Positions 6,352 to 48,555 of a stretch of 64,000 nucleotides of DNA are shown here, piece after piece. How positions within the stretch are numbered: the first letter of the stretch is position 1; each line of letters opens with the position of its first letter. Made by a program: the position numbers and the translations under genes. Origin of the DNA: Botryllus schlosseri (taxonomy: Eukaryota); the NCBI GenBank assembly GCA_051294905.1, contig CM119371.1, positions 3,846,001 through 3,910,000 of the forward strand. Direction: 5' to 3'. Below the pieces are notes generated by a model. The model had not been told where the DNA came from, ran no database searches, and was given only the letters and a program-made list of their open reading frames with translations.

Positions 6352-6868
6352 TAGGGCTGGGCATAATGATTCGAGTACTCGAATCTGAATCGAGTAGTAA
6401 TTTTGATGATTCGAGTCGAGTAGTAAAATACGATTTTTTCGAGTACTGAAATTATACGCTCCTCGCCGCTGAAAGTTGATTTATCAACAAGAACTATAGT
6501 GTCGATACTAATTTTCAGTGAGGAAGCCTTGAAACCTTGACTGGTCGTACCGTAGCATACAATACATAGTACAAAGCTACAAAAGTTACTGGGACGAATA
6601 ACGCATTTCTGAAGTCATGATCATTCCACAACATTGCCACCCAGTGAAATGAAATCAGTGTGGTCCAAAAATACCTAGCTATCTTTAATATGATGGATAA
6701 TGGACATTACATTCCTTGTGGCGGCATAAAAGGTACAAATTTGTACTTTGAAATACTGTATTCGGTTATGACGTCATAATAAGTGATACTCGATTACTCG
6801 ACTCGACTCGAAGCAGTATACGTGATTCAGAATCGAATCACCCGGGTACTCGATTTTGCCCAGCCCTA
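6352..6868. mobile_element. hAT MITE
   Basis: TIR TAGGGCTGGGCA/TGCCCAGCCCTA; TSD GTTGTAAC on both sides; subterminal TCGAGTA repeats. A related fragment starts near 3060. Confidence 0.85.
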
Positions 6869-8085: not shown

Positions 8086-11000
8086 CCTCTTACAAAAGCC
8101 TAGAAGTGTGTCGTGCTACTATAGTCGGCGGTTAGGGATTGACAAATAAGAATATCAGCCTGGTGTAAACGACCATTGTTGTCGACAAACAAAATGATTT
8201 CCGCAAACGACATTAGGGTGGTTGATTACATCGTGAATGTCGATAATGCAAGTCTTCTCGCTTCGACGAACTTACGCGTAAGCTCCACTCTCGGACACTT
8301 CACATACACGTAGGCTATATCATAACATACAGTCACTAAAATTTGACGGAGTAAGCAATTAGTGGGAGATCTCGGCAGACTGGGGTCGCGGGTCAAATTA
8401 TCATGTAAGACGTCAATCTCTCCGTGGGCCATACAAAATCCCTTCGTGGACCGGATCCGGCCCGCGGGCCGTATGTTGCCCGCACCTTATATAGGCCATA
8501 GTCATGCGCAATGACTTGAGCCTATATAACTGGAATTGAAAAAAAACTGACTCGAGTCAGGCCAGACCACTAAAAATGGCAATTTGAGTCATTACATCTG
8601 TGGTCAGATTTTGTGATTCACCTCTACAATCTGCCCGACAAAACAATTTCATTTCCGTCAAATAATCTAATAAAAGAGGTGCCTCGAGTATGCCACTCAA
8701 AACATCATAACTTACCACATAAAGGAGTTGCCGATCAATTGATATACATGTTTAGGCTACTTTTTAAATCTACCAGATTTAACATTCTCTAAAATGTCTG
8801 GATATATGCTATCTTTGGCACAAGTACAACGCTCGACATCAATTCGTTGCTTAACCATATATAGAAGTAAAAACTGCAGAAACACGTCTATTTGTTCATG
8901 CATCAAATGTAATCCTGCACCAGTATTGGTCGCGTGGGACTTGAGCCGAACCTCGGCGCCTGTTACTTGATAGTCTAACGCAAGATCAGTAGTCTACTGC
9001 GTGGGTGAGCTGGACACCTTATGCTTCACATTGAGCTTGCAGGTAACGGCATACAAATGTAACAATGTATATTTGGAAAAAAAATGATTTTTTGCGTGAG
9101 CATAAATAACACGTGCTTAGTTCACTACTGAAACTTCTTTTGCAGAGGCTTGTAGCTTTATTACGAGAAGCTCAACATTACAACCTGTCGAAACCGGGGG
9201 CTCCCTTCGTCCAACATAGGCATTCATTAATAAACATCATGTGACAACTTTGTGTCTCACATTTCATATGAAACAGATAAGGTGTATGCATGCAAGTTAG
9301 TGTAGCATTTAACAAGATTTTATGGATTAACATTATAGTGAATAGCAATAAATACTGAAACAACGACACTACGAATTTTGGACCACGCAAACAGCTCAGT
9401 AAACAAAATATACTTTAACGCAAGTCATTCAACTATACCGTTTGTTTATTCTCGTAGATAACAGGGAAGCGCACAGGCCGACAATATTACATAAGGCGTA
9501 TTATATATTTACCTTGGATGTACTAACTTTGCCTTTATAGTTGCTCGAATTTATTAGATGGCCGAACCAATTGATCTATCAATTTTCAAGTCCCTACTAA
9601 TTATTTTATGTGATCACGAATCATTGCATCAATCATACATTGGAAACATGCGGTGAATTATATCAAGACAATAATTCGAGTCACTATTTCCAAGTTACTG
9701 TTTAGAATACAACCAAATTCTGGATGGAAGCTGGTTGCATTGTTAACATATCGATTTGTGAAACTAGATTAACATATCTGAAATGTTTTGATTGGGAAGA
9801 TTAAGCCGTGTTCGTAAAAACCACACAGCGTATTGTGGATATCAGGAAATATTTTACAAATGTAATTGTCTCCAGTAACCAGGACAAAAGATGAAACAAC
9901 AATTTCCTTTGTTGAACAATAACCGGTACAATACTTGATCATCGTAATCTGCGGTGAGAAATGAAACACTTTCGTGCATTACTCGGTGTCAAGATATCGC
10001 ACTAGGTGAATTGTCATACCGCCGCCTGATTAATGCTTAATCCGTTCGAACCATTTCACGCACTTTGATCATTACAAAAGTAAATTGTGACATGTTTGTT
10101 AGATGCATCGAATTCAACTAGAAGTGTCTAGTGCCCAACACTCGTAATATCGAAAAAGTACTTGCTGCACTGTTATTTGCTAAACGTGTTTTGCATTGTT
10201 GTTCATTTCTAGTATTGATTGAAATCGTTCTTGAACCCTCAAATAATAATTCCCGACATGAAACCAAGCCGCTGAAAGTCGTTACCATCACGAAGAAACA
10301 ATGTGTACGATGTTTGTCAAATGTGTCCTACCTGGTCAACAGAAAACAATTTTCACTCACTCGAAATGAAACCAATGTGATGGTCTCCACTCGATATTTT
10401 GTTTGTGTCAAATACTTTGCAATGAACACATTTGCGTGGTTGAGCTTTACATCATCAAGCTGTTATTTGTAAATCAAGATTCCGGTAAACTTGTAAATGT
10501 GTCGTTTAACTAACCGACATTTAGTGATTGGGGAACATACCACTTCGAAATACTGCGTTGATCGTAATTTCCATCATCGTGATAATCGAAGTACATTTCT
10601 TTCGAATTCATAACAATCGGCAACGACATGATAAATTTTTGACAAGTTATGCTTAGAAGATTGGTTGCATATCGCGAAAAATAATATACCACTCATATTG
10701 ATACTGTTACTCCATTGATCGATATTTTCAAACGAGTAAAATTTATTACTTGAGTTTCTCCGCTTAATGTAAATGCAAACTCAGCCGTCTTTTAACATCA
10801 CAAAGGCATTGATAAAAAGTAGACAATCAAACGCTACAAGTTTAACTTTTGTAGGTTGTGTATGATTACCCCACGCAACTCATTTCTTACCAAAAGTAGA
10901 TGAAATATATTCATGGTACACGAAAATACTCGACATTCCCATGCTACGAACCTGTACAATGATTGGTGACGCTTTCAAAACTGTTTCGATACCTCAAGAC

Positions 11001-12100
11001 CTTTATTGTCTGAATGGATGTTCATGTATCTTAATAATCAAATAGTTCAACACAGAACCAGTACGAACAGAAACACCAGAGTTGTTTACACAAAAGTTTG
11101 TATGTGTACAGTATGCGAATACCATGTGCAAGTCCAGCACAATTGCGGTATCCATCCGAGTTTAGTTAACACAAATTTATTACAACGGAACCACGTAAAC
11201 TTTCGTGAAAGAAAAGCATACTCACTTCCAGAGGGTTATGTCAATACCATAGCAGTAAATCAGCTACGCCAACAAGAAAGTACATATGTTTTCTAGTCAC
11301 GGTCCTTCCATCTTTCACATAGATCAATCTACTTTGCTAACGAAAAGTGCTGAGTCGTCACATGATTGCCCTCACAACAAAACAGCTAGAAGATATTATC
11401 ATACAAAAATATTCCTAACCCTTTGAGCACCTGTGACAAATCATACAACGAATATGTTTTGTGTGTCGAATTGTTGTTCAGTGTCAAGTCTACCTGTTGA
11501 AACGTACATTAAAACAACACAGTCACAATTCAATTAAAACCACGAATCTATTTTCATTTCCTCACAAACTGTCACATACAGAAAAATAAATTTTATTCCG
11601 CCAAAACATACTTGTAACCAATCGCTTTCATTAAACACACAACACCATAAAAGTATTTACTTTCTACAACATAGACATTCCGATGTAGTCAAGAAATATT
11701 TTTATTAATTAAAATCATCGACTTCTGTTTACGGCGTTAGTGTGTGCATTTCATATATGTGGGATCCGTATTAAAATGGACACGACGCGACTGAATGTAA
11801 GGAGATAGAAGTCTATCGCATAGATTTACATGTGGTCTTCGCTACGGTTTCAAAAAACTAATCATCTCTTTTGCATTGATCGAGACCGAGCAAGTTAGTT
11901 AATGGCCATGATTGTGTTTGTCATATGCGAATGATAGGGTTACTGTCAAATCTACATACAACAACCTTCTGGCACTCATAATAGCAATTTCATTCTCTCC
12001 TTTCGTAATTGTAGACTCACGACAAGTATATTGTACAACTCGACAGCTACGTTTAACAACACCAACGACACTAAACATACGATACCTACCCAAGTAAAAT

Positions 12101-12600
12101 TACCATTTTCACTTGGCGGGTCGTCGTTTACCTGAGTAAAAATATCATTTTCCTTTGGAGATTTATCGTTTACCTAGTGTAACAAACCCCTTTTTCACTT
12201 GGAAATATATTTTTACCCAGTGTAACAAAACCCTTTTCTTTTGGAAATCTATTTTTGCCCTGGATAACAAACCTTTTTCACTTGGAAATCTATTTTTGCC
12301 CCGGATAACAAACCTTTTTTACTTGGAAATATATTTTTCCCTGGGTAACAAACCTTTTTCACTTGGAAATATATTTTTTCTCTGGGTAACAAACCTTTTT
12401 CACTTGGAAATATATTTTTTCCCTGAGCAACAAACCATTTTCCCTGTGCAACAAACCATTTTCACTTGGCGGGTCGTCGTTTACCTGTGTAAAAATATCA
12501 TTTTCCTTTGGAGATCCGGCGTTTACCCAGTGTAACAATACATTTTCTCTTGGTCATCTAGCTTTTCCTAGAGTAACAAAACCATTTTCATTTTGAAATC
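12101..12600. repeat. Tandem array of ~12 units of 40-44 bp with an imperfect palindrome core
   Basis: TTGG landmark at 12113, 12155, 12199, 12241, 12282, 12323, 12363, 12404, 12466, 12508 and 12550; consensus TTTTCACTTGGAAATATATTTTTCCCTGGGTAACAAACC. Confidence 0.92.
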
Positions 12601-12720
12601 TGACAAACACACCTGACAATTTGGTATTTGTTGTATTGACGATAATTTGAAATAGATTACAACGGATAGCGACAAAATATACACCAACAACAACTCCGAT
12701 ACATTTGTTTAATCAAATAT

Positions 12721-12969
12721 TCACTTGTTCTGATTCATCCCAACAAAATCATTGGGTACTCGCATGCAATAACAATGTGCTGTTGTACATCGACATGTAT
12801 GTTTTCGGAATTGGCGAATAAAGCGGTTTCCGATATGTCTGTATTGTCCGGGTTCGTGCTTTGGATTTTCCAGAGTCAAAATGTCTGAATAAAACACCTC
12901 ATCGACTTTGGTAACTGGTTGATACATGGATAATGGCGTTTGGAAAACGGATGAATTTATGTTCCCCAT
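12721..12969 (-). CDS. 82-aa hypothetical protein with an N-myristoylation-like start and a Cys/His cluster (left-arm copy)
   Basis: ATG start; MGNINS fits MGxxxS; HTCRCTTAHCYC; identical in both arms. Confidence 0.35.
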   Translation of the reverse strand: MGNINSSVFQTPLSMYQPVTKVDEVFYSDILTLENPKHEPGQYRHIGNRFIRQFRKHTCRCTTAHCYCMRVPNDFVGMNQNK

Positions 12970-13397
12970 CGCGCTAACAACACCTGGTTACTTGTGAGTT
13001 TCCTCGGGTCTGTTTACTATATTGTGTCTTTACTGGTCAATACATGTCGCTCCAGTCAGCTGAAACCGGATCACTAATATGAGAAAGTGTGTGGACCGGA
13101 TCCGGATATTCACACATGAACCAACGACCAATATTCAAGTAAACATGTTACAGACCGTGTTTTGTCACCATGAAAAATACCAATGCATACACCATCACAT
13201 CAAGTACGTCACGATTGTTCACAAGTATTCGCGTAAACCAGGTGTACATACAATGTGTCGGTGTACAAACATCATGGGACACAAATTCATGTTCTCAAGT
13301 CTCATCATGCGACGACTCTGTACATTCAATGTGGGTATAGAGGACTTGGGGACATGATACAATGGACAGTGCATTATGCGTACCGATATATTCTCAG

Positions 13398-13673
13398 TCA
13401 AATATGCGAACCATTAACAACCATATACCCTGATTTTCGCTGAATATCCACAACACCAAGAAATCTGTACATTTCTTTTCCCTCGACCTCGACGATAGAG
13501 TTGTCATCCCAATGTACCAATCGAGTGTATGGTTCATCAGGTGTAAAATCCAAATCAAATGTCACCAAGGTATCGTTTTTCATTTTCAATATTTCCACCG
13601 CTGCATCTTGTCTGTGTCGTAAAACCACGGTGTGAGGCCAAAGAAACCGATGGACAGTTACGCGTAGTCCCAT
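13398..13673 (-). CDS. 91-aa hypothetical protein in the inverted-repeat spacer
   Basis: ATG-initiated, intronless, globular-looking composition (VTFDLDFTPDEPYTRLVHWDDNSIVEVEGKEMYRFLGVVDI); no recognised family. Confidence 0.35.
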   Translation of the reverse strand: MGLRVTVHRFLWPHTVVLRHRQDAAVEILKMKNDTLVTFDLDFTPDEPYTRLVHWDDNSIVEVEGKEMYRFLGVVDIQRKSGYMVVNGSHI

Positions 13674-13764
13674 ATTTACTCGTGCATATAGTCAGGTAAC
13701 GACAACGTTTTCTCAGTGGTCTGCGTGGGTGACCCGTTTCAGTACGTAGCTGGATCAACTAGAC

Positions 13765-15629
13765 CAGTGCTTTTCAACCTGTGTGACGGTTCGCACTGGT
13801 GCGAATGAAAAAAATGGCAGTGCGAATGACGAAGGTGGTGCGAATAGTGCGAATGAAAATCCGGATCATGGGCGAATGAAAATCATGAATAATTGTTTAC
13901 TTTTCTGAGGTGGAATAATTCAAATAAACCTAATAGGAAATTTAAGATCAGTAACTCAGTTGCGAAGCAATTGTAAAAACTGAATACGACGCACCACTAA
14001 TCGTAGCTCTCACAATTCCCGCAATATAAATATTACGTAACCAAAAGCCTGGTTTGGAAGCTGGTTTAGTGGCAGTATAGAGATCTCTGCAATCTCTGTA
14101 GTGGCAGACATACAGTATATCAGCGCATCTGAGCCTGCGACAGGCTGGAAAATTGACATCAAATTGACTTTCTGCTTTCTTTCGCTAAACAATCATTATA
14201 TTTTCGTAATAAGTGTTCGATAGCGCGAGGCACGAGGATAGTAGTAAATACCATCATTACAGACTCACATTTGTAAGTTACTGTAACGCAGATATACAGA
14301 GACGTATCGCAGACATATCCATATCGCAGACATATCCAAGATCACTGTGTTGGGTACTGTAGCCAACAAGCGAGACACGCATTAAATATGGCTCCATCAT
14401 AAGAATTTATGATAAGATTTGTCCGACACTGTTTTTTCTGGAAGACATGGCCGAAGCTCGAAGATGAACGTTGGGATGAGCTAGTGTAGAAGTGTGCAGC
14501 GAGCGAGTTCAGGTCTATGAGACTCATTCATTTCGAGGCCAACCCCTTCTGCGTCGGGGCACATGAAGACATAATGTTTTGGCGAACAAACCGCTGATAA
14601 AATGCGGTGCCAAAACATAAGCGGCGAAAAAACTATGGTCTAAAAATTACCGATGCTGGATGGCCAAACCTTTCGAGATGGATTGGATATGCTCCGTCGT
14701 CAGCACGGAATAAATAGTCTGGTTATTGCAATCTGAGTAGACAGCAGTACAACTGCGATACGCAGAGGAATTTAATCCGCCCTAATTTGAAATCGCGTGC
14801 GTCAGACATGTTTTGTGGAGCTGCGTTGGGTAGAATTGTGGTGTGCGGGTTATGTATGTCATACATGCCCGTAAAATCGTACCATACAACTGTAATATTA
14901 AAAATAAATTGCTTTTCATGGGTGAGGCTCGGGTCGCGAGATGCCACAAAAACTCAGATTTTTGTGGTAGTATAAAAGCTGCTTTACCGTTATTAAACTG
15001 TCATTCTTTAGTTCTGTAATTCTCAAGTTAGATTGAGCTAAAGAGTAAAACACACAGTATCGTGAGCTATTTTGCTCTTCTCATAAACTTGCGAGACAGA
15101 AGTTGGAGCAACGTATCATCAGGTAGCGAGCTCTAATGTGCCTACTCTCATTGATCGTTTTGCACCTTATGTTCCAAAGACATAAGGCAAAAGCCTCAAC
15201 ACAAACATGTGGGTTTTCCATCCTTTCGACAAACTAGAGCCTCGTAGAACCTTTGTGTCAGCTCTCAAAACGATTTCTGCCAGCAAGTATTTTTCACTCG
15301 CGAAAAATACGCTGTATTTTGGATAGGATTGCAGAACAGATTTTAAGACCTGGCCATCCAAGCACTAGTAGAAGTTCTTGTACAAATTCTCAACAACATT
15401 GTTTGGCCGAGAAATGAAAGCAAAACGAGCGAAAAAAGTCGCCTTTACATTGAGACACTTGAAAGCTTAAGGTAGATAGTAGCCAATTTGTTGCACATAT
15501 GAACAAAATATTGTTAAGTAGGCCTATCATCATCATCTTTTTGTATAACAATTTTCGATTAGTTGGTGCGAATGAAATTTATTTTACAAAAAAAGTGCGA
15601 ACGGTGCTCAAAAAGGTTGAAAAGCACTG
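13765..15629. mobile_element. Non-autonomous hAT element (Buster/Charlie-type), 1.87 kb
   Basis: TIR CAGTGCTTTTCAACC/GGTTGAAAAGCACTG; perfect TSD AACTAGAC; subterminal GTGCGAATG repeats; diverged copy at 44727-47492. Confidence 0.92.
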
Positions 15630-16590
15630 AACTAGACCAAAAGTTTCCATCCGCGTTTTATAACGACATGTAGAATTACGAGACAGCACCCTCTTGCAGT
15701 GTGATTAACACGAAATCAACCTTTAAGACGAAATAAGCCTCCAACTCGCAGAGACACACCTTGGATTACATTATCTAATCGTAATCGAACTCGAGATTCA
15801 CACACACACAGAGTCCCTGTTTACGATTTCAATCCGGAGTCACTGCTCACGATGTTTATCTGTACTCGGTATGTGGGAGTAGCGACATCTGACATATTCA
15901 TCGCGTGAAAGATTGATAACGATGGTGATCGCCAAATACATTATGCCAGGTGAAACACTGCGGCCTCAGCAAAAAAAGTTCGCAGGTTAGGACGAACAAT
16001 ACGTGGCGGGATTGAGCGAGTTACCCAACCCGATTATGTCGAAGTCTGGATCACGATACAAGTCTACCTGAGAATCCGAACAATCTTGCAAAATCAAGGT
16101 GTGAACCCGTGAAAGGGCTGTACTCGTGTAAGATTGATTTTTCACAAGTTGGGTGGAGGTTGGTTCATACTAAGACCATGTTACGTCCAAATATGGCTGC
16201 TTGCCTGTCTCCAAGTCCTCTATACCCACATTGAATGTACAGAGTCGTCGCATGATGAGACTTGAGAACATGAATTTGTGTCCCATGATGTTTGTACACC
16301 GACACATTGTATGTACACCTGGTTTACGCGAATACTTGTGAACAATCGTGACGTACTTGATGTGATGGTGTATGCATTGGTATTTTTCATGGTGACAAAA
16401 CACGGTCTGTAACATGTTTACTTGAATATTGGTCGTTGGTTCATGTGTGAATATCCGGATCCGGTCCACACACTTTCTCATATTAGTGATCCGGTTTCAG
16501 CTGACTGGAGCGACATGTATTGACCAGTAAAGACACAATATAGTAAACAGACCCGAGGAAACTCACAAGTAACCAGGTGTTGTTAGCGCG

Positions 16591-16839
16591 ATGGGGAACA
16601 TAAATTCATCCGTTTTCCAAACGCCATTATCCATGTATCAACCAGTTACCAAAGTCGATGAGGTGTTTTATTCAGACATTTTGACTCTGGAAAATCCAAA
16701 GCACGAACCCGGACAATACAGACATATCGGAAACCGCTTTATTCGCCAATTCCGAAAACATACATGTCGATGTACAACAGCACATTGTTATTGCATGCGA
16801 GTACCCAATGATTTTGTTGGGATGAATCAGAACAAGTGA
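16591..16839 (+). CDS. 82-aa hypothetical protein (right-arm copy of 12721-12969)
   Basis: Identical translation, MGNINSS...CRCTTAHCYC. Confidence 0.35.
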   Translation: MGNINSSVFQTPLSMYQPVTKVDEVFYSDILTLENPKHEPGQYRHIGNRFIRQFRKHTCRCTTAHCYCMRVPNDFVGMNQNK

Positions 16840-16959
16840 ATATTTGATTAAACAAATGTATCGGAGTTGTTGTTGGTGTATATTTTGTCGCTATCCGTTG
16901 TAATCTATTTCAAATTATCGTCAATACAACAAATACCAAATTGTCAGGTGTGTTTGTCA

Positions 16960-17459
16960 GATTTCAAAATGAAAATGGTTTTGTTACTCTAGGAAAAGCT
17001 AGATGACCAAGAGAAAATGTATTGTTACACTGGGTAAACGCCGGATCTCCAAAGGAAAATGATATTTTTACACAGGTAAACGACGACCCGCCAAGTGAAA
17101 ATGGTTTGTTGCACAGGGAAAATGGTTTGTTGCTCAGGGAAAAAATATATTTCCAAGTGAAAAAGGTTTGTTACCCAGAGAAAAAATATATTTCCAAGTG
17201 AAAAAGGTTTGTTACCCAGGGAAAAATATATTTCCAAGTAAAAAAGGTTTGTTATCCGGGGCAAAAATAGATTTCCAAGTGAAAAAGGTTTGTTATCCAG
17301 GGCAAAAATAGATTTCCAAAAGAAAAGGGTTTTGTTACACTGGGTAAAAATATATTTCCAAGTGAAAAAGGGGTTTGTTACACTAGGTAAACGATAAATC
17401 TCCAAAGGAAAATGATATTTTTACTCAGGTAAACGACGACCCGCCAAGTGAAAATGGTA
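16960..17459. repeat. Mirror copy of the 41-bp palindromic tandem array
   Basis: Reverse complement of 12101-12600. Confidence 0.92.
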
Positions 17460-20400
17460 ATTTTACTTGGGTAGGTATCGTATGTTTAGTGTCGTTGGTG
17501 TTGTTAAACGTAGCTGTCGAGTTGTACAATATACTTGTCGTGAGTCTACAATTACGAAAGGAGAGAATGAAATTGCTATTATGAGTGCCAGAAGGTTGTT
17601 GTATGTAGATTTGACAGTAACCCTATCATTCGCATATGACAAACACAATCATGGCCATTAACTAACTTGCTCGGTCTCGATCAATGCAAAAGAGATGATT
17701 AGTTTTTTGAAACCGTAGCGAAGACCACATGTAAATCTATGCGATAGACTTCTATCTCCTTACATTCAGTCGCGTCGTGTCCATTTTAATACGGATCCCA
17801 CATATATGACATGCACACACTAACGCCGTAAACAGAAGTCGATGATTTTGATTAATAAAAATATTTCTTGACTACATCGGAATGTCTATATGTAGAAAGT
17901 AAATACTTTTATGGTGTTGTGTGTTTAATGAAAGCGATTGGTTACAAGTATGTTTTGGCGGAATAAAATTTATTTTTCTGTATGTGACAGTTTGTGAGGA
18001 AATGAAAATAGATTCGTGGTTTTAATTGAATTGTGACTGTGTTGTTTTAATGTACGTTTCAACAGGTAGACTTGACACTGAACAACAATTCGACACACAA
18101 AACATATTCGTTGTATGATTTGTCACAGGTGCTCAAAGGGTTAGGAATATTTTTGTATGATAATATCTTCTAGCTGTTTTGTTGTGAGGGCAATCATGTG
18201 ACGACTCAGCACTTTTCGTTAGCAAAGTAGATTGATCTATGTGAAAGATGGAAGGACCGAGACTAGAAAACATATGTACTTTCTTGTTGGCGTAGCTGAT
18301 TTACTGCTATGGTATTGACATAACCCTCTGGAAGTGAGTATGCTTTTCTTTCACGAAAGTTTACGTGGTTCCGTTGTAATAAATTTGTGTTAACTAAACT
18401 CGGATGGATACCGCAATTGTGCTGGACTTGCACATGGTATTCGCATCCTGTCCACATATAAACTTTTGTGTAAACAACTCTGGTGTTTCTGTTCGTACTG
18501 GTTCTGTGTTGAACTATTTGATTATTAAGATACATGAACATCCATTCAGACAATAAAGGTCTTGAGGTATCGAAACAGTTTTGAAAGCGTCACCAATCAT
18601 TGTACAGGTTCGTAGCATGGGAATGTCGAGTATTTTCGTCTACCATGAATATATTTCATCTACTTTTGGTAAGAAATGAGTTGCGTGGGGTAATCATACA
18701 TAACCTACAAAAGTTAAACTTGTAGCGTTTGATTGTCTACTTTTTATCAATGCCTTTGTGATGTTAAAAGACGGCTGAGTTTGCATTTACATTAGGCGGA
18801 GAAACTCAAGTAATAAATTTTACTCGTTTGAAAATATCGATCAATGGAGTAACAGTATCAATATGAGTGGTATATTATTTTTCGCGATATGCAACCAATC
18901 TTCTAAGCATAACTTGTCCAAAATTTATCATGTCGTTGCCGATTGTTATGAATTCGAAAGAAATGTACTTCGATTATCACGATGATGGAAATTACGATCA
19001 ACGCAGTATTTCGAAGTGGTATGTTCCCCAATCACTAAATGTCGGTTAGTTAAACGACACATTTACAAGTTTACCGAAATCTTGATTTACAAATAACAGC
19101 TTGATGATGTAAAGCTCAACCACGCAAATGTGTTCATTGCGAAGTATTTGACACAAACAAAATATCGAGTGGAGACCATCACATTGGTTTCATTTCGAGT
19201 GAGTGAAAATTGTTTTATGTTGACCAGGTAGGATACATTTGACAAACATCGTACACATTGTTTCTTCGTGATGGTAACGACTTTCAGCGGCTTGGTTTCA
19301 TGTCGGGAATTATTATTTGAGGGTTCAAGAACGATTTCAATCAATACTAGAAATGAACAACAATGCAAAACACGTTTAGCAAATAACAGTGCAGCAAGTA
19401 CTTTTTCGATATTACGAGTGTTGGGCACTAGACACTTCTAGTTGAATTCGATGCATCTAACAAACATGTCACAATTTACTTTTGTAATGATCAAAGTGCG
19501 TGAAATGGTTCGAACGGATTAAGCATTAATCAGGCGGCGGTATGACAATTCACCTAGTGCGATATCTTGACACCGAGTAATGCACGAAAGTGTTTCATTT
19601 CTCACCGCAGATTACGATGATCAAGCATTGTACCGGTTATTGTTCAACAAAGGAAATTGTTGTTTCATCTTTAGTCTTGGTTACTGGAGACAATTACATT
19701 TGTAAAATATTTCCTGATATCCACAATACGCTGTGTGGTTTTTACGAACACGGCTTAATCTTCCCAATCAAAACATTTCAGATATGTTAATCTAGTTTCA
19801 CAAATCGATATGTTAATAACAATGTTTCTGAAAAGTTTGTTGGTGTCGTGATAACCTTCTACACAACCCTGATCTAATAATGTCATAATTTAATAACCAA
19901 GTCATGATCGACTATTACAAAATCTCATATGTCAAAATCAATGTGTCAATTCGTGAAAATTTTCAATATAACACCCGCGTTTGATCGTAAGAATTCTCAA
20001 CTACGTGTTCGGACATTCAAATTTCGTATACTCAAATGTAATATGTTAATCTCAAACCACACACCGAGTAGTATTTACTTTGGTTTATAAAATTTACCGA
20101 GTAGTAATTACTTTATCTTACAGCATATTAACGACTTTTACAGTTGAACAAAGATGATTTGGTGGTATATGACTACAACCGAACTTGTTATGGATTTTAG
20201 ATTGTAGCGATTGTATGTACTCGCGTAATCTTGTCTTCTTCTTTCTGTATGGTTGGTTGGCCGAGTTACAAACGGATTTACTTGACAAGGTTTTCATGAT
20301 TTACTCTTTTGAGTATGGTAAGATGTTAAAATTTCGAGGTGTAATACTATTTCCATTAACTCAATTGTGACAAAAAAAAATACCCAGATAAGTTGCTCAA

Positions 20401-21439
20401 GGCTTCTTTTGTTTCAAATCAACATGTGAATAATCAGTTATTGTGACAAGTTGAAATGTCGTACCGAAGTTGTGAGTGGGAACAGTACGCGATTGTGTAA
20501 GTGTGAGGACAGCGAGATGGTGATCGTGTGAATAAATTAATCTGAAACGCATTGGAGTGAAAGTTTATCCAGTCTGTCTGGTAATCCTACTTCAAATCGT
20601 GATATGACAAAGTAGCTTGAAATATTCCGATTCAACTCATCGCATCGCAACTCGATCGTGGTATGCACAAGTGGTTGTCAAGTAAGAAATATTTACAACA
20701 GGTGCTATTTCATTGATTGACTTGATTGTGTGTAGTAACACATTAAAATATAGCGATAGTAATTACTGAAACTCTATTTGACAAACGGAAAACTGTGAAT
20801 AGCGTTGTAAGGTTTCAAGGATTGTTTCAAAGTGTAATCTCTAACTATGGTTGGGTTGAAAGTTGGTAGTAATGTTTGTCAATCTATTTCAATTCACACT
20901 ATGTCAAGTCCAAATATTTCATTCTGGATTATCTGGATTTACCTTTAGTACATCCCGCGAATGGATTCCGACGCCGTACTATAACATTTTTTGATAATAA
21001 GGATTCAAGGATTTTCATGATAGAGTTGACAAGTGATAAGATGCGTGTTTTTGGTAAGAGTTTGATTTCAAGTTGGTAAAGACAATAACTGTATGATGCA
21101 CGTACTTGTGATTCTTGATTCTTGTAGAGTTATAGTTGGTATTGATTCTATAGGTGTGAAAACAGCGGCGCGGAATGTGCGAATAATTCAATGTGGCTGA
21201 AAGTCGGCGTCAGTAATGGTCGAATCAAAAGATCACGAAAAGATTTCTCAAAATAATTAGAATTGTACCGAATCAACACATTCGGATACGAATCAACTTG
21301 AGCTGTGTAGTAAGTTTCATTTCGAGTTGGCAAATTGACACATTACTTGAATATTCTCATAATTCTTATCGCGCAACTAAAGTCAGCCACGTTCCGAACT
21401 GTCAAAACATATAGCGACCACCAGAAAGTGTCAAATTGT

Positions 21440-22225
21440 TGGTTTTCGAATCACCGTCTGCGACGGTTCTGGGACAAACTAATTACCGAAATATTACCTT
21501 GTGAGCGGACATGAGGGATTGCTATGTCTGAAGCATTATCCGGTGAGTGGTCGTTGGATTTTAAAATTATATCACACCCTTTTGAATAAGCGTTCACTTC
21601 ACAGAGGATTAGGGTTAGAGCGGAAATAAGTGACAATTTGTCGCAATTCAAGTTACCGACACTGGCGGTCTGTTATTCGTTACTTGTTAAATCTTACCAG
21701 CGAAATCAAGTTCTGTGACAAACTGATTACTAAAATTTCACCGCGTGAGCGATCGGTATGGTTATGACACCAAGTCGTGAAAGATGGTTATGTCCGGGAC
21801 ATTATCTTGTCAGTGATCGCGGGGTTTTGCAAATATTTCACACCTTTTTGAATAAGCGTTAACTTCACAAAGGATTACGGCTAGAATAGAAATAAGTGAC
21901 AATTTGTTGGTATTCAAGTCTCGCCGGTGGTGTATCTGTTATTCGACACTTATTACACTTATCATGAAATTAGAGTGAGAACATAAAGCATCAAGTTGTT
22001 GTTTTCGAATTTTGATGTCGAGGTGATAAATTTACGCATTCAATTACAATTCAACTTTGGTTGTGTATTGAGTGATAGATCGATATGCCGGAAGTGGTAT
22101 CTTGTGAGTGATCGTAGGATTTTACAAATATTTCACATCTTTTTGAAGTGTTAGTTTGCGAACGCGACTATTGTTGATATTCGAATCGCCGTCTACGCCG
22201 GCTCTGTGACAAACTAAATACCTGA
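21440..22225 (+). repeat. Diverged direct repeats, ~250-290 bp period
   Basis: TCACACC(C/T)TTTTGAATAAGCGTT-like motif near 21570, 21835 and 22130; GACAAACT at ~21473, 21717 and 22208; GAAATAAGTGACAATTTGT twice. Confidence 0.75.
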
Positions 22226-22679
22226 AAGCAGAGATGGAAGCGGGCCGGGTGAGCCAGACCCGAACCCGGCCCAAACCCGACAAGTTCAGCCCGAACCCGG
22301 CCCGAACCCGACGGTTGGGTTTTGAGCCCGTTTCGGCCCGAAACCAAGTTCAAATAGCAATTTTCAACTGTTGCGAGCAAATAAGCTGATATACGATTCA
22401 AATTTCGTGCTTTTCAACGCTTTCAATGCTCTCACTTTGTTTTCTTTCGATAGCAATCTTGCAAATGGCAAGAGAGCTTAATATATTTGAATAAGAATAC
22501 GCTGAAAACAGCTCCACTGTTAACTTAGTTCCACCAAACCTTTTGCAAAATGTGAACTGTATTAAATGGTTCAATACCAAACTAAATTAAAGAAATAAAG
22601 GAATGAAATTGGCCAAGATGAGAAAAAATAGTGTGTTCAAAATACAAGTCAACTGTCATCCATACAAAGGGCGTTGCAT

Positions 22680-22890
22680 TCACACGTTATACGAAGAATT
22701 GATTATTTCAATAGCCTCAACAGTTACTGGAGACAGTCGGGTTCGTCTATGCGACAAGGTCAGACCGCACGATGAAAAATCTCTTTCGGATCGCGCACTT
22801 GAGCACTGGGCTGCAAACATCTTTCTAGCCACCCTGAAGAGCGTTGGAAAGTCCCGTTCATGGTTTCTCCAGAAGTTTCGTATATAGACC
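22680..22890 (-). pseudogene. hAT transposase C-terminal dimerisation-domain remnant
   Basis: Minus-strand translation FWRNHERDFPTLFRVARKMFAAQCSSARSERDFSSCGLTLSHRRTRLSPVTVE fits the hATC pattern W..FP.L..A...SS..SER.FS..G....R..L. Confidence 0.88.
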
Positions 22891-23247
22891 TAAAGTCCTA
22901 AAGCAATTCACCATGGACGACAAAATCACTATGGCGCATCTAAAAGCTTTCTTTAATAAATATTAACACCGCCGTAACACATCTATCGATCAATCCTGCT
23001 GTGCCACAACGGAAGCCGTCGTCTCATCACCTGCTTCTAGCTGTTCAGTTCAGCATGCCTCATCGAAATTAAAACTAAATTGGTAGTAATCCAGGCTCCA
23101 GCATGGTAATCCATCCATCCGTTATTCATGTTTTCGTCACAATGTGGCCTGAACAATGATCAATGTCTGGCGTATTAGGGACACTTGTTTACTATTTAGC
23201 TGACATTGTTTCATTATTCAATCATAGTCTTCGGGCCGTCTTATAAT

Positions 23248-24220
23248 CAGTGTTGGGATCAAGTCACTACCTTCGAGTCACGAGTCATTTCGAGTCATTG
23301 CGCATTTTGACTCGAGTCAAGTCAAGTCAATCGATTTTCGAAGGTGACTCGAGTCAAGTCAAGTCACTCGATTTTTGGAGGTGACTCGAGTCAAGTCGAG
23401 TCAAGTCAAGTCAAGTCACGAGTCAAGTCACAATTCAAGTCAAGTTGCCTTTTCCAAGTATATAAGCATGATTACGTCATTGCATTTTGCTAGCTGTCTG
23501 AAATACAGGTTGAGTGGACATTGATTTTCTACCGATGATGAACTAATATAGAGTTAAAGGCGTTGTATCGCTCACATATAGGCTACGTAGAACTACTAAA
23601 CTACGTAAGTAATTGCATACCCTCAGTTTATAGTCACCTTCCAAAATAGAGAATAGAGAAACGAATTGATAGGATGCAATAAATTACCTATTTACAAATT
23701 GATATGATACAATTCGAGCCTGCGCCAATTGGTGGGGACTATATGTAAACTATATTCGAATTCAATTTCAATAAAACAAGAGGTTGGTTAAGGTAAGAAC
23801 AGAGAAGTGAAATACACATTTTTCTATCAAATTACTTTACTATGCTAGTTTACAGCAAAGTAAGCTGTAAGCTTCGACTTCGTTTGCGGTCAATATATTT
23901 GTGAGAGTGAGAAAACAATGGAGGCTCAGTAAAGCGCACGATCATTGAATGATTGGTCGCTCTCGCGGGTTACAGCAGCGTTTCGTGAACAATTCGACAT
24001 ACGTGAGATACAGTGATTTTTATCGAGACCGATTACTTGATGACTTGAAATTGACTCGTGAATTTTGCTCCGAGTCACGAGTCAATCCACATTTTTGATG
24101 CGCCGAGTCAAGTCAAGTCAAGTCATTTTAGCAAAGTGACTCGAGTCAAGTCAAGTCATACGAAAAAGGTGACTCGAGTCTGACTCGAGTCAAGTCATGA
24201 CTCGAGTCATCCCAACACTG
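23248..24220. mobile_element. hAT MITE with GAGTCAAGTC subterminal repeats (nested)
   Basis: TIR CAGTGTTGGGAT/ATCCCAACACTG; TSD CTTATAAT/CTTGTAAT. Confidence 0.88.
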
Positions 24221-24276
24221 CTTGTAATGAAGTTTATCTGGGTTCGTACTTCGTATAAAGTTTATTCACAGATATT

Positions 24277-24527
24277 GTAATGGTTATGCGTCCGGCTTCT
24301 CGAGCGGTAGGTCGTGGGTTCGATCCCCGGCCGGGTCATACCAAAGACTTGAAAATTGGTATCCGCAGCTATCCCGCTAGGCGCTCAGCAATCACGGATA
24401 GCATGGAGGAGAAAAAAAACGGGGGCGCAGACTAGATGACCTCATGGGGCCGTATCGCAACTCCGTCGTCAAAGCATCTCGATGGTGCAGGCGAAAAAGA
24501 ATATCATATCTCTCTCTCTCTCTCTCT
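24277..24527 (+). mobile_element. tRNA-derived SINE, probably with a Meta/MESC-type core (nested)
   Basis: A-box remnant TAATGGTTA; B box GGTTCGATCCC; core GGTCATACCAAAGACTTGAAAATTGGTA...GGCGCTCAGCA; (TC)n tail. Confidence 0.8.
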
Positions 24528-24556
24528 ATTGCCATACTTACGTGATACGGTATTGG

Positions 24557-25010
24557 CAGTGATGGCCCTACGAACGGGGGGGCCTGGGCGAGACTTACCG
24601 GGGGGCCCCCTATAAGTATCTATCCGTAACTTCTGGTATCTATCCCCAGACCCCCCTCACGCATCGGTTATTATTATCTATCTTTCACCACCGCAGAAGG
24701 TTTGCCCAAGTCCTGGATTCGGCCATGTCTGTTTTGCATGTGTGCAAGGATATAGACTACATCAAAACTAAGTAATTCTACCTCATGCAGAGACGTGATG
24801 ATTATCGGGATACGGGACTTTTCTAACAAATGCAGTGATTTGATGATGATTGACACATTTGTACGGAATCATATTCTTGCTTGGTACGCGGATTTCCATG
24901 TTTATTTGTCATTCTCCTTGAAAAAAGCGCCAAATCCAAATAGGGGGGCCCCTTCGACCGAGGGGGGCCCAGGCGACCGCCCACCTCGCCCACCCCAAAA
25001 GCCACCACTG
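24557..25010. mobile_element. hAT MITE (nested)
   Basis: TIR CAGTGATGGC/GCCACCACTG; perfect TSD GGTATTGG. Confidence 0.85.
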
Positions 25011-25344
25011 GGTATTGGTGTATCTTATATGTAGTTGTGCCACTTTCGAACAAAATTGCAAATCAAATTTGTATATGAGGTCAATGCTTTTCGTAGTGAC
25101 TATTCGGCCCGATTCAATCCCGATAATTTTTATAACTTTGGGCCCGAACCCGGCCCGAACCCGGCCCAAACCCGGCCCGAACCCGAAAAGCCCGGCCCGA
25201 CTTCCATCTCTGCCTGAAAGTACGACTTTTCACCGCAACCATAAGCCACCACACGAGAGATGTCTATACCCGAAAGTACGACATACCAACAACGAAGCCG
25301 CGTGCGACCGCTGTCTATGCTGAAAAGGGTTACCGTGCGACCAC

Positions 25345-25575
25345 AAGACACAATAGCCGCTCGCCACCCCCACCATAAGACATAAAAGCCGCTTGCCACC
25401 CCCGGTTTTCCAGCCGCTCGCCACCCCGCCTATAAGAAATAAGAGCCGCTCGCCACCCCCGCCATAAGACGCAATAGCCGCTCGCCACCCCCGCCATAAG
25501 AAATAAGAGCCGCTCGCCACCCCCGGTTTTCCAGCCGCTCGCCACCCCGCCCATAAGAGCCCCAGGCACCCCCAG
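25345..25575. repeat. GC-rich tandem array, 7 cores of AGCCGCTCGCCACCCC
   Basis: Cores at 25355, 25387, 25412, 25444, 25476, 25508 and 25533 (spacing 32/25/32/32/32/25; 121-bp higher-order period). Confidence 0.92.
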
Positions 25576-25954
25576 AGCGATCTATATAACTACTAACGGA
25601 TGAATGCTTGTGTGGGGAGAAAACTAAAGGTACTACTTCTGATATACACAAGTTCTTTTGAGATTAATGTATCTGTTTATCTGAAGTGCGGAGTAGGCCT
25701 GTGTAAATTTACGCAGCGAACTGCATACTGATCATTAGTTTATTATGTATCAGAACGTCCGTATCAAATAGGAGACCATTGTTTAAATTCGAACTAAAGT
25801 ATCTTAAACAGTAAACTTAGGAACATCTTCAAATTGGTATTCTTTTACTGTTAGGCTATAGTGAAGTCGAAATGTATATTTGGCATGAATTGAACATAAT
25901 ATCATCGCTCGGTACTTTACCTTCTCATCGCTGCTATATGAAATTCTCTTTCAG

Positions 25955-48555
<22,601 letters not shown>

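Follow-up and report, generated by a model that had tools for sequence, protein, structure and literature searches.

The question raised by this locus is how a long, foreign-looking inverted repeat with no recognizable gene came to lie in an ascidian chromosome. The locus was studied in a 64-kb stretch of the Botryllus schlosseri genome (C1:3846001-3910000, hereafter the window, to which all positions given without a contig name refer) and compared with the whole assembly (495.5 Mb, 219 contigs). The original prediction, made from the window alone, had placed there, at 9180-25580, an endogenized or non-autonomous piece of an uncharacterized large DNA virus or giant mobile element. Our best explanation, which we consider likely, is that the block is a truncated copy of a gene-less, palindromic element of approximately 13.7 kb that is non-autonomous and derives from Polinton/Maverick elements. 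As a locus it is ordinary, a dead and truncated member of its family; what is new is the link to Polintons of a giant palindromic, gene-less family, the behavior of whose arms bears on Polinton replication.

The element in the window spans 9740-25594 and is organized around an inverted repeat, 9740-13354 against 16206-19819, in which 1,929 nt pair at 99% and 1,684 nt at 100%; alignment of the arms over 3,615 bp revealed 21 differences (99.42% identity). Between the arms is a central spacer of 986 bp, counting one extra copy of an 8-bp duplication, whose left (13355-13764) and right (15630-16205) parts are both conserved in other palindromic copies and are separated by a hAT-like insertion (13765-15629). 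The inner part of the right arm (16206-19819), which mirrors the left arm, is followed by an outer part (19820-22228) that is partnerless in this copy and is matched elsewhere at 94-97%, mostly in inverted pairs. Beyond a second hAT insertion (22229-25212) lies the terminal part (25213-25594), holding a GC-rich subterminal array of 32-bp units and the 20-bp terminus GAGCGATCTATATAACTACT (25575-25594), which ends ACTACT. Without the second hAT, the right arm is 6,397 bp long.

As in other copies, the right arm runs outward to 25594, and the left arm stops short. Only the inner 3,615 bp of the latter (9740-13354) are present; homology to other family copies begins at 9738-9740, and bases 9440-9739 matched none of them. 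Nothing remains of the left terminus, of the left target flank or of the ~2.78 kb that would form the outer left arm, and the terminus at 25575-25594 was the sole one identified in the 64-kb window. The junction at 25594/25595 was set by two paralogous uninterrupted copies of the insertion site that read ...CCACAGG and then, across the insertion point, AACGGATGAATGC. These empty sites also identified AACGGA (25595-25600) as the surviving copy of a presumed 6-bp target-site duplication. The target sequence to the left of the insertion point occurs nowhere in the window, which indicates that the outer left arm, left terminus and left flank were lost together. The host DNA at 25595-27192 is itself repetitive, with relatives at C17:665853-667460 (92%) and C1:29550270-29551438 (93%). 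The window copy is old, damaged and truncated, and no longer able to move.

These findings altered the outline of the block as it was first drawn. Its left edge, given as 9180, is at 9740, where homology starts, and its right edge, given as 25580, is at 25594, as fixed by the terminus and the empty sites. The predicted 3.6-kb inverted repeat does exist, but it is the remnant of a repeat of 6.4 kb that extends further outward in other copies. The reported enrichment in A/C on the left and G/T on the right was also apparent, as GC skew was below zero at 10-13 kb and above zero at 16-22 kb; this strand asymmetry is a consequence of the architecture, because any inverted repeat must show such a skew. 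The window gave no match in Rfam or tRNA scans.

Is this architecture peculiar to one locus? The arm was found at dozens of loci genome-wide, 72-95% like the window copy and mostly as head-to-head inverted pairs, and both 19820-22228 and the terminal 320 bp (25274-25594) were repeated too, mostly as inverted pairs 13-16 kb apart. From these copies, the complete element was reconstructed as approximately 13.7 kb, consisting of two 6.4-kb inverted arms, which make up ~93% of its length, around a conserved spacer of ~0.9 kb. For example, the copy at C3:33685709-33699435 is 13,727 bp long, has a 937-bp spacer and is flanked by the target duplication TACAAC. All complete copies examined begin with AGTAGTTATATAGATCGCTC and end in its reverse complement (AGTAGT...ACTACT). 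In six of six further copies, 6-bp duplications were identified (TACGAT, GACGGG, CCCGAG, ACCGTA, GTCGTA and CACTTG), so that seven of seven complete gene-less copies carry a duplication of this length. Spacer length in eight copies was 836-977 bp, and spacer identity across the other palindromic copies was 74-98%; since the spacer is conserved among copies, the architecture is inherited rather than rebuilt at random points.

The 20-bp terminus, with up to two mismatches allowed, occurred 332 times in forward and 330 times in reverse orientation in the genome, compared with two and zero occurrences for a reversed-pattern control. Among the 100 terminus places listed, 76 formed 38 adjacent pairs with a median span of 13,764 bp; 28 of the 38 spans fell within 12.5-16.5 kb and 21 within 13-15 kb. 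A variant terminus, AGTAGTGTAGTAGATCGCTC, gave counts of 320 forward and 331 reverse, and its pairs were spaced over a similar range. The block is therefore far from the single-copy intergenic DNA that would have spoken against a mobile element: approximately 330 pairs of termini are present in the genome, and the other copies, true ends and target-site duplications sought from the original prediction were all recovered. At ~14 kb each, we estimate that the exact and variant terminus types together amount to on the order of 1-2% of the genome.

Several loci showed departures from the simple palindrome. A 17.8-kb copy on contig C7 proved to be a palindrome with nested insertions. The copy at C14:23200321-23214842, with a 700-bp inverted repeat and a unique right half, was entertained as an asymmetric progenitor and rejected when its right half was found to be a separate repeat of ~5.5 kb; the copy is, by our reading, a palindrome that was disrupted, this repeat now filling its right half. 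This second repeat (L024 377-6400, equivalent to C14:23207977-23214000) appears young, being present at at least 20 loci at 97-99%, and there was no Pfam match among its frames of at least 55 residues. The order of termini at C5:24843939-24865250 (+ + - -) and at C7:5550438-5573406 (+ - -) suggests that palindromic elements are nested in one another.

Inverted repeats of 99-100% identity around a short spacer are also common artifacts of long-read assembly, and a local inverted segmental duplication might look much the same. The same architecture at dozens of loci on many contigs, each with its own flanks and target duplications, makes either origin so improbable that we give it almost no weight.

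The termini of the family led to elements that do carry genes. Approximately 2 Mb from the window, a Polinton at C1:5923771-5942033 has termini 18,263 bp apart, genes on one strand and a polymerase frame of 1,214 residues. Its right end reads ...GAGCGATCTACTACACTACT, and its last 1.4 kb are 86-99% like the terminal region of the palindromes. A protein search with this polymerase identified at least 57 loci, 52 of which lacked an internal stop in the matched stretch. At least two of the 57 sit between pairs of exact palindrome-type termini, and one of these, C5:885676-904217, was examined. It is 18,542 bp long, with identical 20-bp termini, terminal inverted repeats of 588 bp (95%) and the duplication AACACC, so that the single gene-bearing copy studied in this way has the same 6-bp scar as the palindromes. 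Genes were recognized in it for an rve integrase bearing a chromodomain (E 2.5e-15) and for a DNA_pol_B_2 polymerase, which scored 33.6 bits where 25.8 is the cut-off; the polymerase frame is interrupted by one TAA. A weak match to an A32-like ATPase was also detected, and a frame of 432 residues resembles double-jelly-roll clusters in a protein atlas (score 0.98), which we treat as a lead only. The hallmark genes missing from the block thus have counterparts in relatives with the same termini, namely integrase and PolB in the C5 copy, together with the weak ATPase match and the capsid-like lead.

Sequence similarity between the two kinds of element extends beyond the termini in some subfamilies. 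Over 0.9-1.5 kb of their ends, the C3 and C14 copies are 89-97% like gene-bearing Polintons. In the C3 palindrome, positions 607-1515 matched the right end of the C5 Polinton (locus 18409-17496) at 96.2% over 914 bp, and ~758 bp of this match lie beyond the Polinton's own inverted repeat. That stretch is found at one end of the Polinton and in both arms of the palindrome. The terminal motif 5'-(AGT)2...(ACT)2-3' is present as well, the window copy ending ...AACTACT at 25594. The passing comparison to Polinton-like elements in the original prediction was therefore well founded, in that the termini, the 6-bp target duplications and the subterminal sequence are common to the palindromes and the gene-bearing Polintons. 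Together, the same ends and the same insertion scar indicate that the palindromes are most likely a parasite or defective form of the Polinton/Maverick elements of the same genome.

The repeat arrays of the arms provided a further point of contact. All those described at the outset were located: a 41-bp tandem array of 6.4 copies at 12179-12442, mirrored at 17118-17381; three diverged repeats at 21511-22147, starting at 21511, 21777 and 22072 (spacing 266 and 295 bp) and 72-79% alike, which correspond to the predicted repeats of ~250-290 bp; and, by a tandem repeat search, the GC-rich array of 32-bp units near the right end (25340-25558). Within a 6.4-kb arm, arrays account for ~220 bp (32-bp units), ~260-410 bp (41-42-bp units) and ~640 bp (266-295-bp units), and the remainder is unique sequence. 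The subterminal layout is common to palindromes and gene-bearing Polintons: units of CTTATGG(G)CGGGGTGG with a variable core take turns with units of GAAAACC-GGGGTG that have this core as well. At 8-10 bases, the core is uniform inside each element and different between elements. This layout was compared at window 25340-25594, L040 277-726, L042 110-560 and the right end of the C1 Polinton (L038). Judged from sequence, the units may be element-specific protein-binding sites.

The hairpin architecture, with arms forming ~93% of the element, tandem arrays at the termini and in the arms, and no genes, is also what would be expected of a foldback (FB-type) class II transposon unrelated to Polintons and moved by a cut-and-paste DDE transposase encoded elsewhere. 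We consider this improbable. In its termini, end motif, array layout and 6-bp duplication the family matches the gene-bearing Polintons of the genome, some subfamilies and a Polinton have 0.9 kb at 96% in common, and most of each arm is unique sequence rather than tandem repeats. In addition, Drosophila FB makes 9-bp duplications, and the duplication in this family was 6 bp in every case.

Does the block encode anything itself? The stop-interrupted frame noticed on the forward strand at 18404-19443 was observed as described, with nine stops in 346 codons, but the outward-pointing frames could not be upheld as genes, as their lengths were no better than those in simulated sequence. The longest open reading frame of the right arm, 131 residues, lies inside the 41-bp array, and this length was reached in 56 of 200 first-order Markov simulations; the right arm contained 680 stops versus a simulated 737 ± 27. 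Among 77 frames of at least 55 residues in window 13300-25700, the only countable Pfam match was a hAT domain in the second insertion, a further match (E 0.0089) being regarded as noise, and the frames of the arms and spacer had no Pfam match. The 80 frames of this size in the C14 copy gave chance-level matches only. Accordingly, no polymerase or integrase gene or remnant was identified in the window copy (tblastn, Pfam) or in the C14 copy (Pfam). Searches of the arms by tblastn for remnants of Polinton proteins matched only end sequence read as protein, plus one match of 76 residues (27.6% identity, E 5e-5) obtained with a short frame from the non-gene strand, which we took as chance.

These results bear on the suggestion that the block is an endogenized fragment of an uncharacterized large DNA virus of baculo-, nudi-, nima- or herpes-like type. 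Internal inverted repeats, repeat arrays and a foreign look are in keeping with that suggestion. Pfam searches, however, recovered no hallmark gene or remnant from the window frames, the C14 frames were at chance level, and ~330 terminus pairs with 6-bp duplications represent the behavior of an integrase-driven element. We therefore consider a viral fragment of this kind very improbable. What survives of the initial interpretation is that the block is foreign, mobile and non-autonomous; what does not is its viral identity, for which neither gene nor remnant was seen.

A property of the family with a bearing on its replication is the relation of the two arms to each other. In every copy examined the arms were 99.28-100% alike, whereas copies differed from the window copy by 5-28%. 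The arms of the C3 copy, 6,395 bp each, were identical at 6,395 of 6,395 positions, with no mismatches and no gaps, and eight copies had between zero and ten arm differences per 4.2-4.5 kb. In a conserved block of 1.17 kb compared across 13 copies, arms were 99.4-100% alike and the best other sampled copy was 94.6-99.65% alike, the latter figure being an underestimate as 14 of several hundred copies were sampled. The lowest arm identities (99.28-99.42%) came from three copies, the ones in which an interruption or truncation was observed: the window copy (99.42%), the 17.8-kb C7 copy (99.3-99.6%) and a copy at C1 ~21.09 Mb (99.28%). This looks like decay after insertion rather than the product of steady conversion.

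An alternative account of the same property accepts the Polinton origin and proposes that the host has kept the palindromes as a hairpin-RNA source of small RNAs against active Polintons, with the arms kept alike by chromosomal conversion. Perfect 6.4-kb arms would, if transcribed, yield long double-stranded RNA; the arms of some subfamilies carry 0.9-1.5 kb of Polinton end sequence; and the inner 1.6 kb of the window copy show almost no arm differences, which is the trace expected of a conversion tract. Nevertheless, we give this account little chance. In RNA-seq run X23, of which ~6% was analyzed, the block attracted 747 reads, 738 of them only partial fits and nearly all inside the second hAT insertion, leaving the arms with just 0-2 per bin. 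In eight other copies, arm differences did not form a gradient toward the center, and the low arm identities of the interrupted copies fit post-insertion decay better than steady conversion.

A number of observations weigh against our preferred reading of the block as a truncated, palindromic Polinton derivative, besides the sampling limit given above. First, the window copy itself is connected to Polintons by less than some of its relatives are: by its exact 20-bp terminus, by a terminal 80 bp that are ~80% identical, by the array layout and by a single weak match of 165 bp (71.5%). The 0.9-kb block at 96% belongs to other subfamilies, represented by the C3 and C14 copies, and not to that of the window. 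Neither the spacer nor most of each arm (~4.9 kb) has a match in Polintons at the level of DNA or protein. Furthermore, with its left end deleted the window copy cannot display a target duplication, and only AACGGA at 25595-25600 is left of it. The confinement of the shared stretch to one Polinton end was observed in a single gene-bearing Polinton with exact termini, C5:885676-904217. A whole-genome scan with Pfam PF03175 found no polymerase; since the protein search gave 57 loci, the scan was evidently insensitive and its blank outcome is meaningless. The arm differences of the window copy are unevenly placed: the outer 2,011 bp contain 20 of the 21, and the inner 1,604 bp just one. By hand calculation such a split has a binomial chance of ~1e-4, and it may reflect a single gene-conversion tract beside the center of the palindrome. 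More generally, chromosomal gene conversion between arms could also keep them alike. Lastly, mobilization in trans, the snap-back origin and the hairpin intermediate, to which we now turn, are steps that we infer.

In the derivation of the palindromes from Polintons that we propose, a snap-back or copy-back event would have duplicated one Polinton end onto both sides of the new element, and the integrase of a Polinton would insert the palindromes in trans. Each round of copying would pass through a single-stranded hairpin or copy-back step in which the second arm is made from the first, and such a step would explain near-identical arms while copies diverge. Arms can stay identical over many cycles only if one is copied from, or repaired against, the other during the cycle. 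The arm identity fits a single-stranded hairpin or panhandle of strand-displacement replication, and fits double-stranded cut-and-paste transposition less well. In the case of the window copy, one hAT element entered the spacer and one the right arm after insertion, and a deletion then removed the outer left arm with its terminus and flank.

Without genes, an element has no evident need to be kept at 13-14 kb. At 6,397 bp, the right arm of the window copy is 2 bp longer than the C3 arm (6,395 bp), although the two are only ~83% alike where they could be aligned and have whole segments that could not. The 13.7-kb element has 74% of the 18.5-kb length of a helper. Adenovirus packaging has a lower size limit, and, with two arms compared, our hypothesis is that a similar limit would explain the kept size: packaging in Polinton capsids would explain why a gene-less element keeps ~74% of helper length across subfamilies that are ~83% alike. 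In its fullest form, the several hundred palindromes of 13-14 kb would be integrated snap-back defective genomes of an endogenous polintovirus, copied by its protein-primed polymerase via a hairpin or copy-back intermediate in which one arm is remade from the other in each cycle, packaged in its capsids and inserted by its integrase. We regard this fuller version as possible, though doubtful.

The two insertions within the window copy were bounded by target-site duplications of 8 bp, as had been claimed for both. The first (1,865 bp, 13765-15629, in the spacer) has inverted ends beginning CAGTGC and the duplication AACTAGAC at 13757-13764 and 15630-15637. Its frames had no Pfam match, so that the hAT label rests on the duplication and the inverted ends only. 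The second (2,984 bp, 22229-25212, minus strand, in the right arm) has the duplication CCTGAAAG and the remnant of a hAT dimerization domain at 22683-22889 on the minus strand (Pfam, E 9e-15). In sequencing run X5, one contig linked 22220 to 25213 with eight letters shared, indicating that a form free of this insertion exists. Both insertions resemble hAT transposons in their 8-bp target duplications and short inverted ends, the domain being found in the second only; both are secondary to the element and are decayed or non-autonomous. The sole RNA-seq signal of the block (X23) was at 23175-24875 inside the second insertion, with 8-14 reads per bin on both strands, and these reads probably come from other copies of the repeat embedded in transcripts. 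The right flank of the C1 Polinton (C1:5942034 onward) reads, after GCCGAG, (TCAAG)n ...TTTTAGCAAAGTGACTC, a motif nearly the same as the subterminal motif at 24099-24135 in the second insertion. The C1 Polinton thus seems to lie inside a copy of the same hAT family.

Why do these palindromes matter? How a Polinton leaves the chromosome and copies itself is still a matter of models. PMC2836005 calls the excision mechanism unknown, and PMC8097293 states that Maverick/Polinton virions had not been observed as of that paper. A single-stranded hairpin or copy-back intermediate would be expected to give arms that stay alike while lineages diverge, and if the clustering of sizes reflects packaging, it would be indirect evidence of passage through capsids. 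The gene-less family outnumbers its presumed helpers, with ~330 exact and ~320 variant terminus pairs versus at least 57 polymerase loci, although this comparison is rough because the same termini occur on both kinds of element. If the defective-genome interpretation is true, the palindromes would represent a natural satellite or defective-interfering lineage, the first for any Polinton, and also a natural record of Polinton replication. Perfect palindromes of several kilobases are likely sites of fragility, deletion and misassembly, as illustrated by the truncated window copy. In the full-text literature, with Repbase and subscription journals outside the search, Polinton derivatives of this palindromic, foldback-like or non-autonomous kind were not found described, nor was there, with subscription journals again outside the search, a paper on Styela Polintons; non-autonomous Polinton entries may exist in Repbase.

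Of the known systems, Polinton/Maverick elements are the closest. Their similarity to the palindromes comprises 20-bp termini identical to those of the C5 copy, the (AGT)2...(ACT)2 motif, the 6-bp duplication and the subterminal array layout, to which some palindrome subfamilies add 0.9-1.5 kb of end sequence at 86-97%. According to PMC8097293, vertebrate Mavericks likewise have 6-bp duplications, 5'-(AGT)2//(ACT)2-3' ends and inverted repeats of 46-1,447 bp, their size is constrained (16.9 ± 1.7 kb), and the repeated end motif is tied to a "jumping-back" step of protein-primed replication. The palindrome family shows exactly the end motif that is tied there to jumping-back. The palindromes differ in having no polymerase, integrase, ATPase or capsid gene or remnant by tblastn and Pfam, in that most of their arm sequence has no Polinton counterpart, and in the length of their inverted repeats, 6.4 kb as compared to 588 bp in the C5 copy and to the vertebrate range just cited. 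PMC5499653 defines Polintons as encoding a protein-primed family B polymerase and a retrovirus-like integrase, a definition under which the palindrome is a Polinton derivative and not a member; the term "non-autonomous polintons" appears there once, for the Tlr1 elements.

Foldback elements (Drosophila FB, sea-urchin TU and Galileo-like) are characterized by long inverted arms that form most of the element and consist largely of tandem repeats. The first of these features was found in the palindromes and the second was not. The likeness lies in the whole-element hairpin, the arrays in the inverted repeats, the general lack of genes and the high copy number. The differences are the 6-bp duplication, the Polinton termini and subterminal sequence, arms of mostly unique sequence, and an unusually uniform and large size (median 13.8 kb for the 38 listed pairs).

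A further parallel is provided by viral defective genomes. Adenoviruses replicate by protein priming, and Polintons are thought to do likewise. The "symmetric recombinant" of adenovirus 12 (Deuring et al. 1981) reportedly had one viral end on both sides, as defective adenovirus genomes are said to have. Snap-back and copy-back defective genomes are presented in PMC13506859 as symmetric genomes that encode nothing and compete strongly for the replication machinery, the snap-back forms being described there for RNA viruses. The palindromes differ from such genomes as integrated, heritable chromosomal copies with target duplications, which are split into subfamilies and are known here from genomic copies. 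By analogy, they are presumed to be helper-dependent, and the genome also contains gene-bearing Polintons that have the same ends and, in most cases, an open polymerase frame. Derivation of both termini from one parent end was seen in the C3 copy and not in the subfamily of the window. What the palindromes have in common with snap-back genomes is near full-length inverted complementarity, a lack of coding capacity and the origin of both ends from a single parental end.

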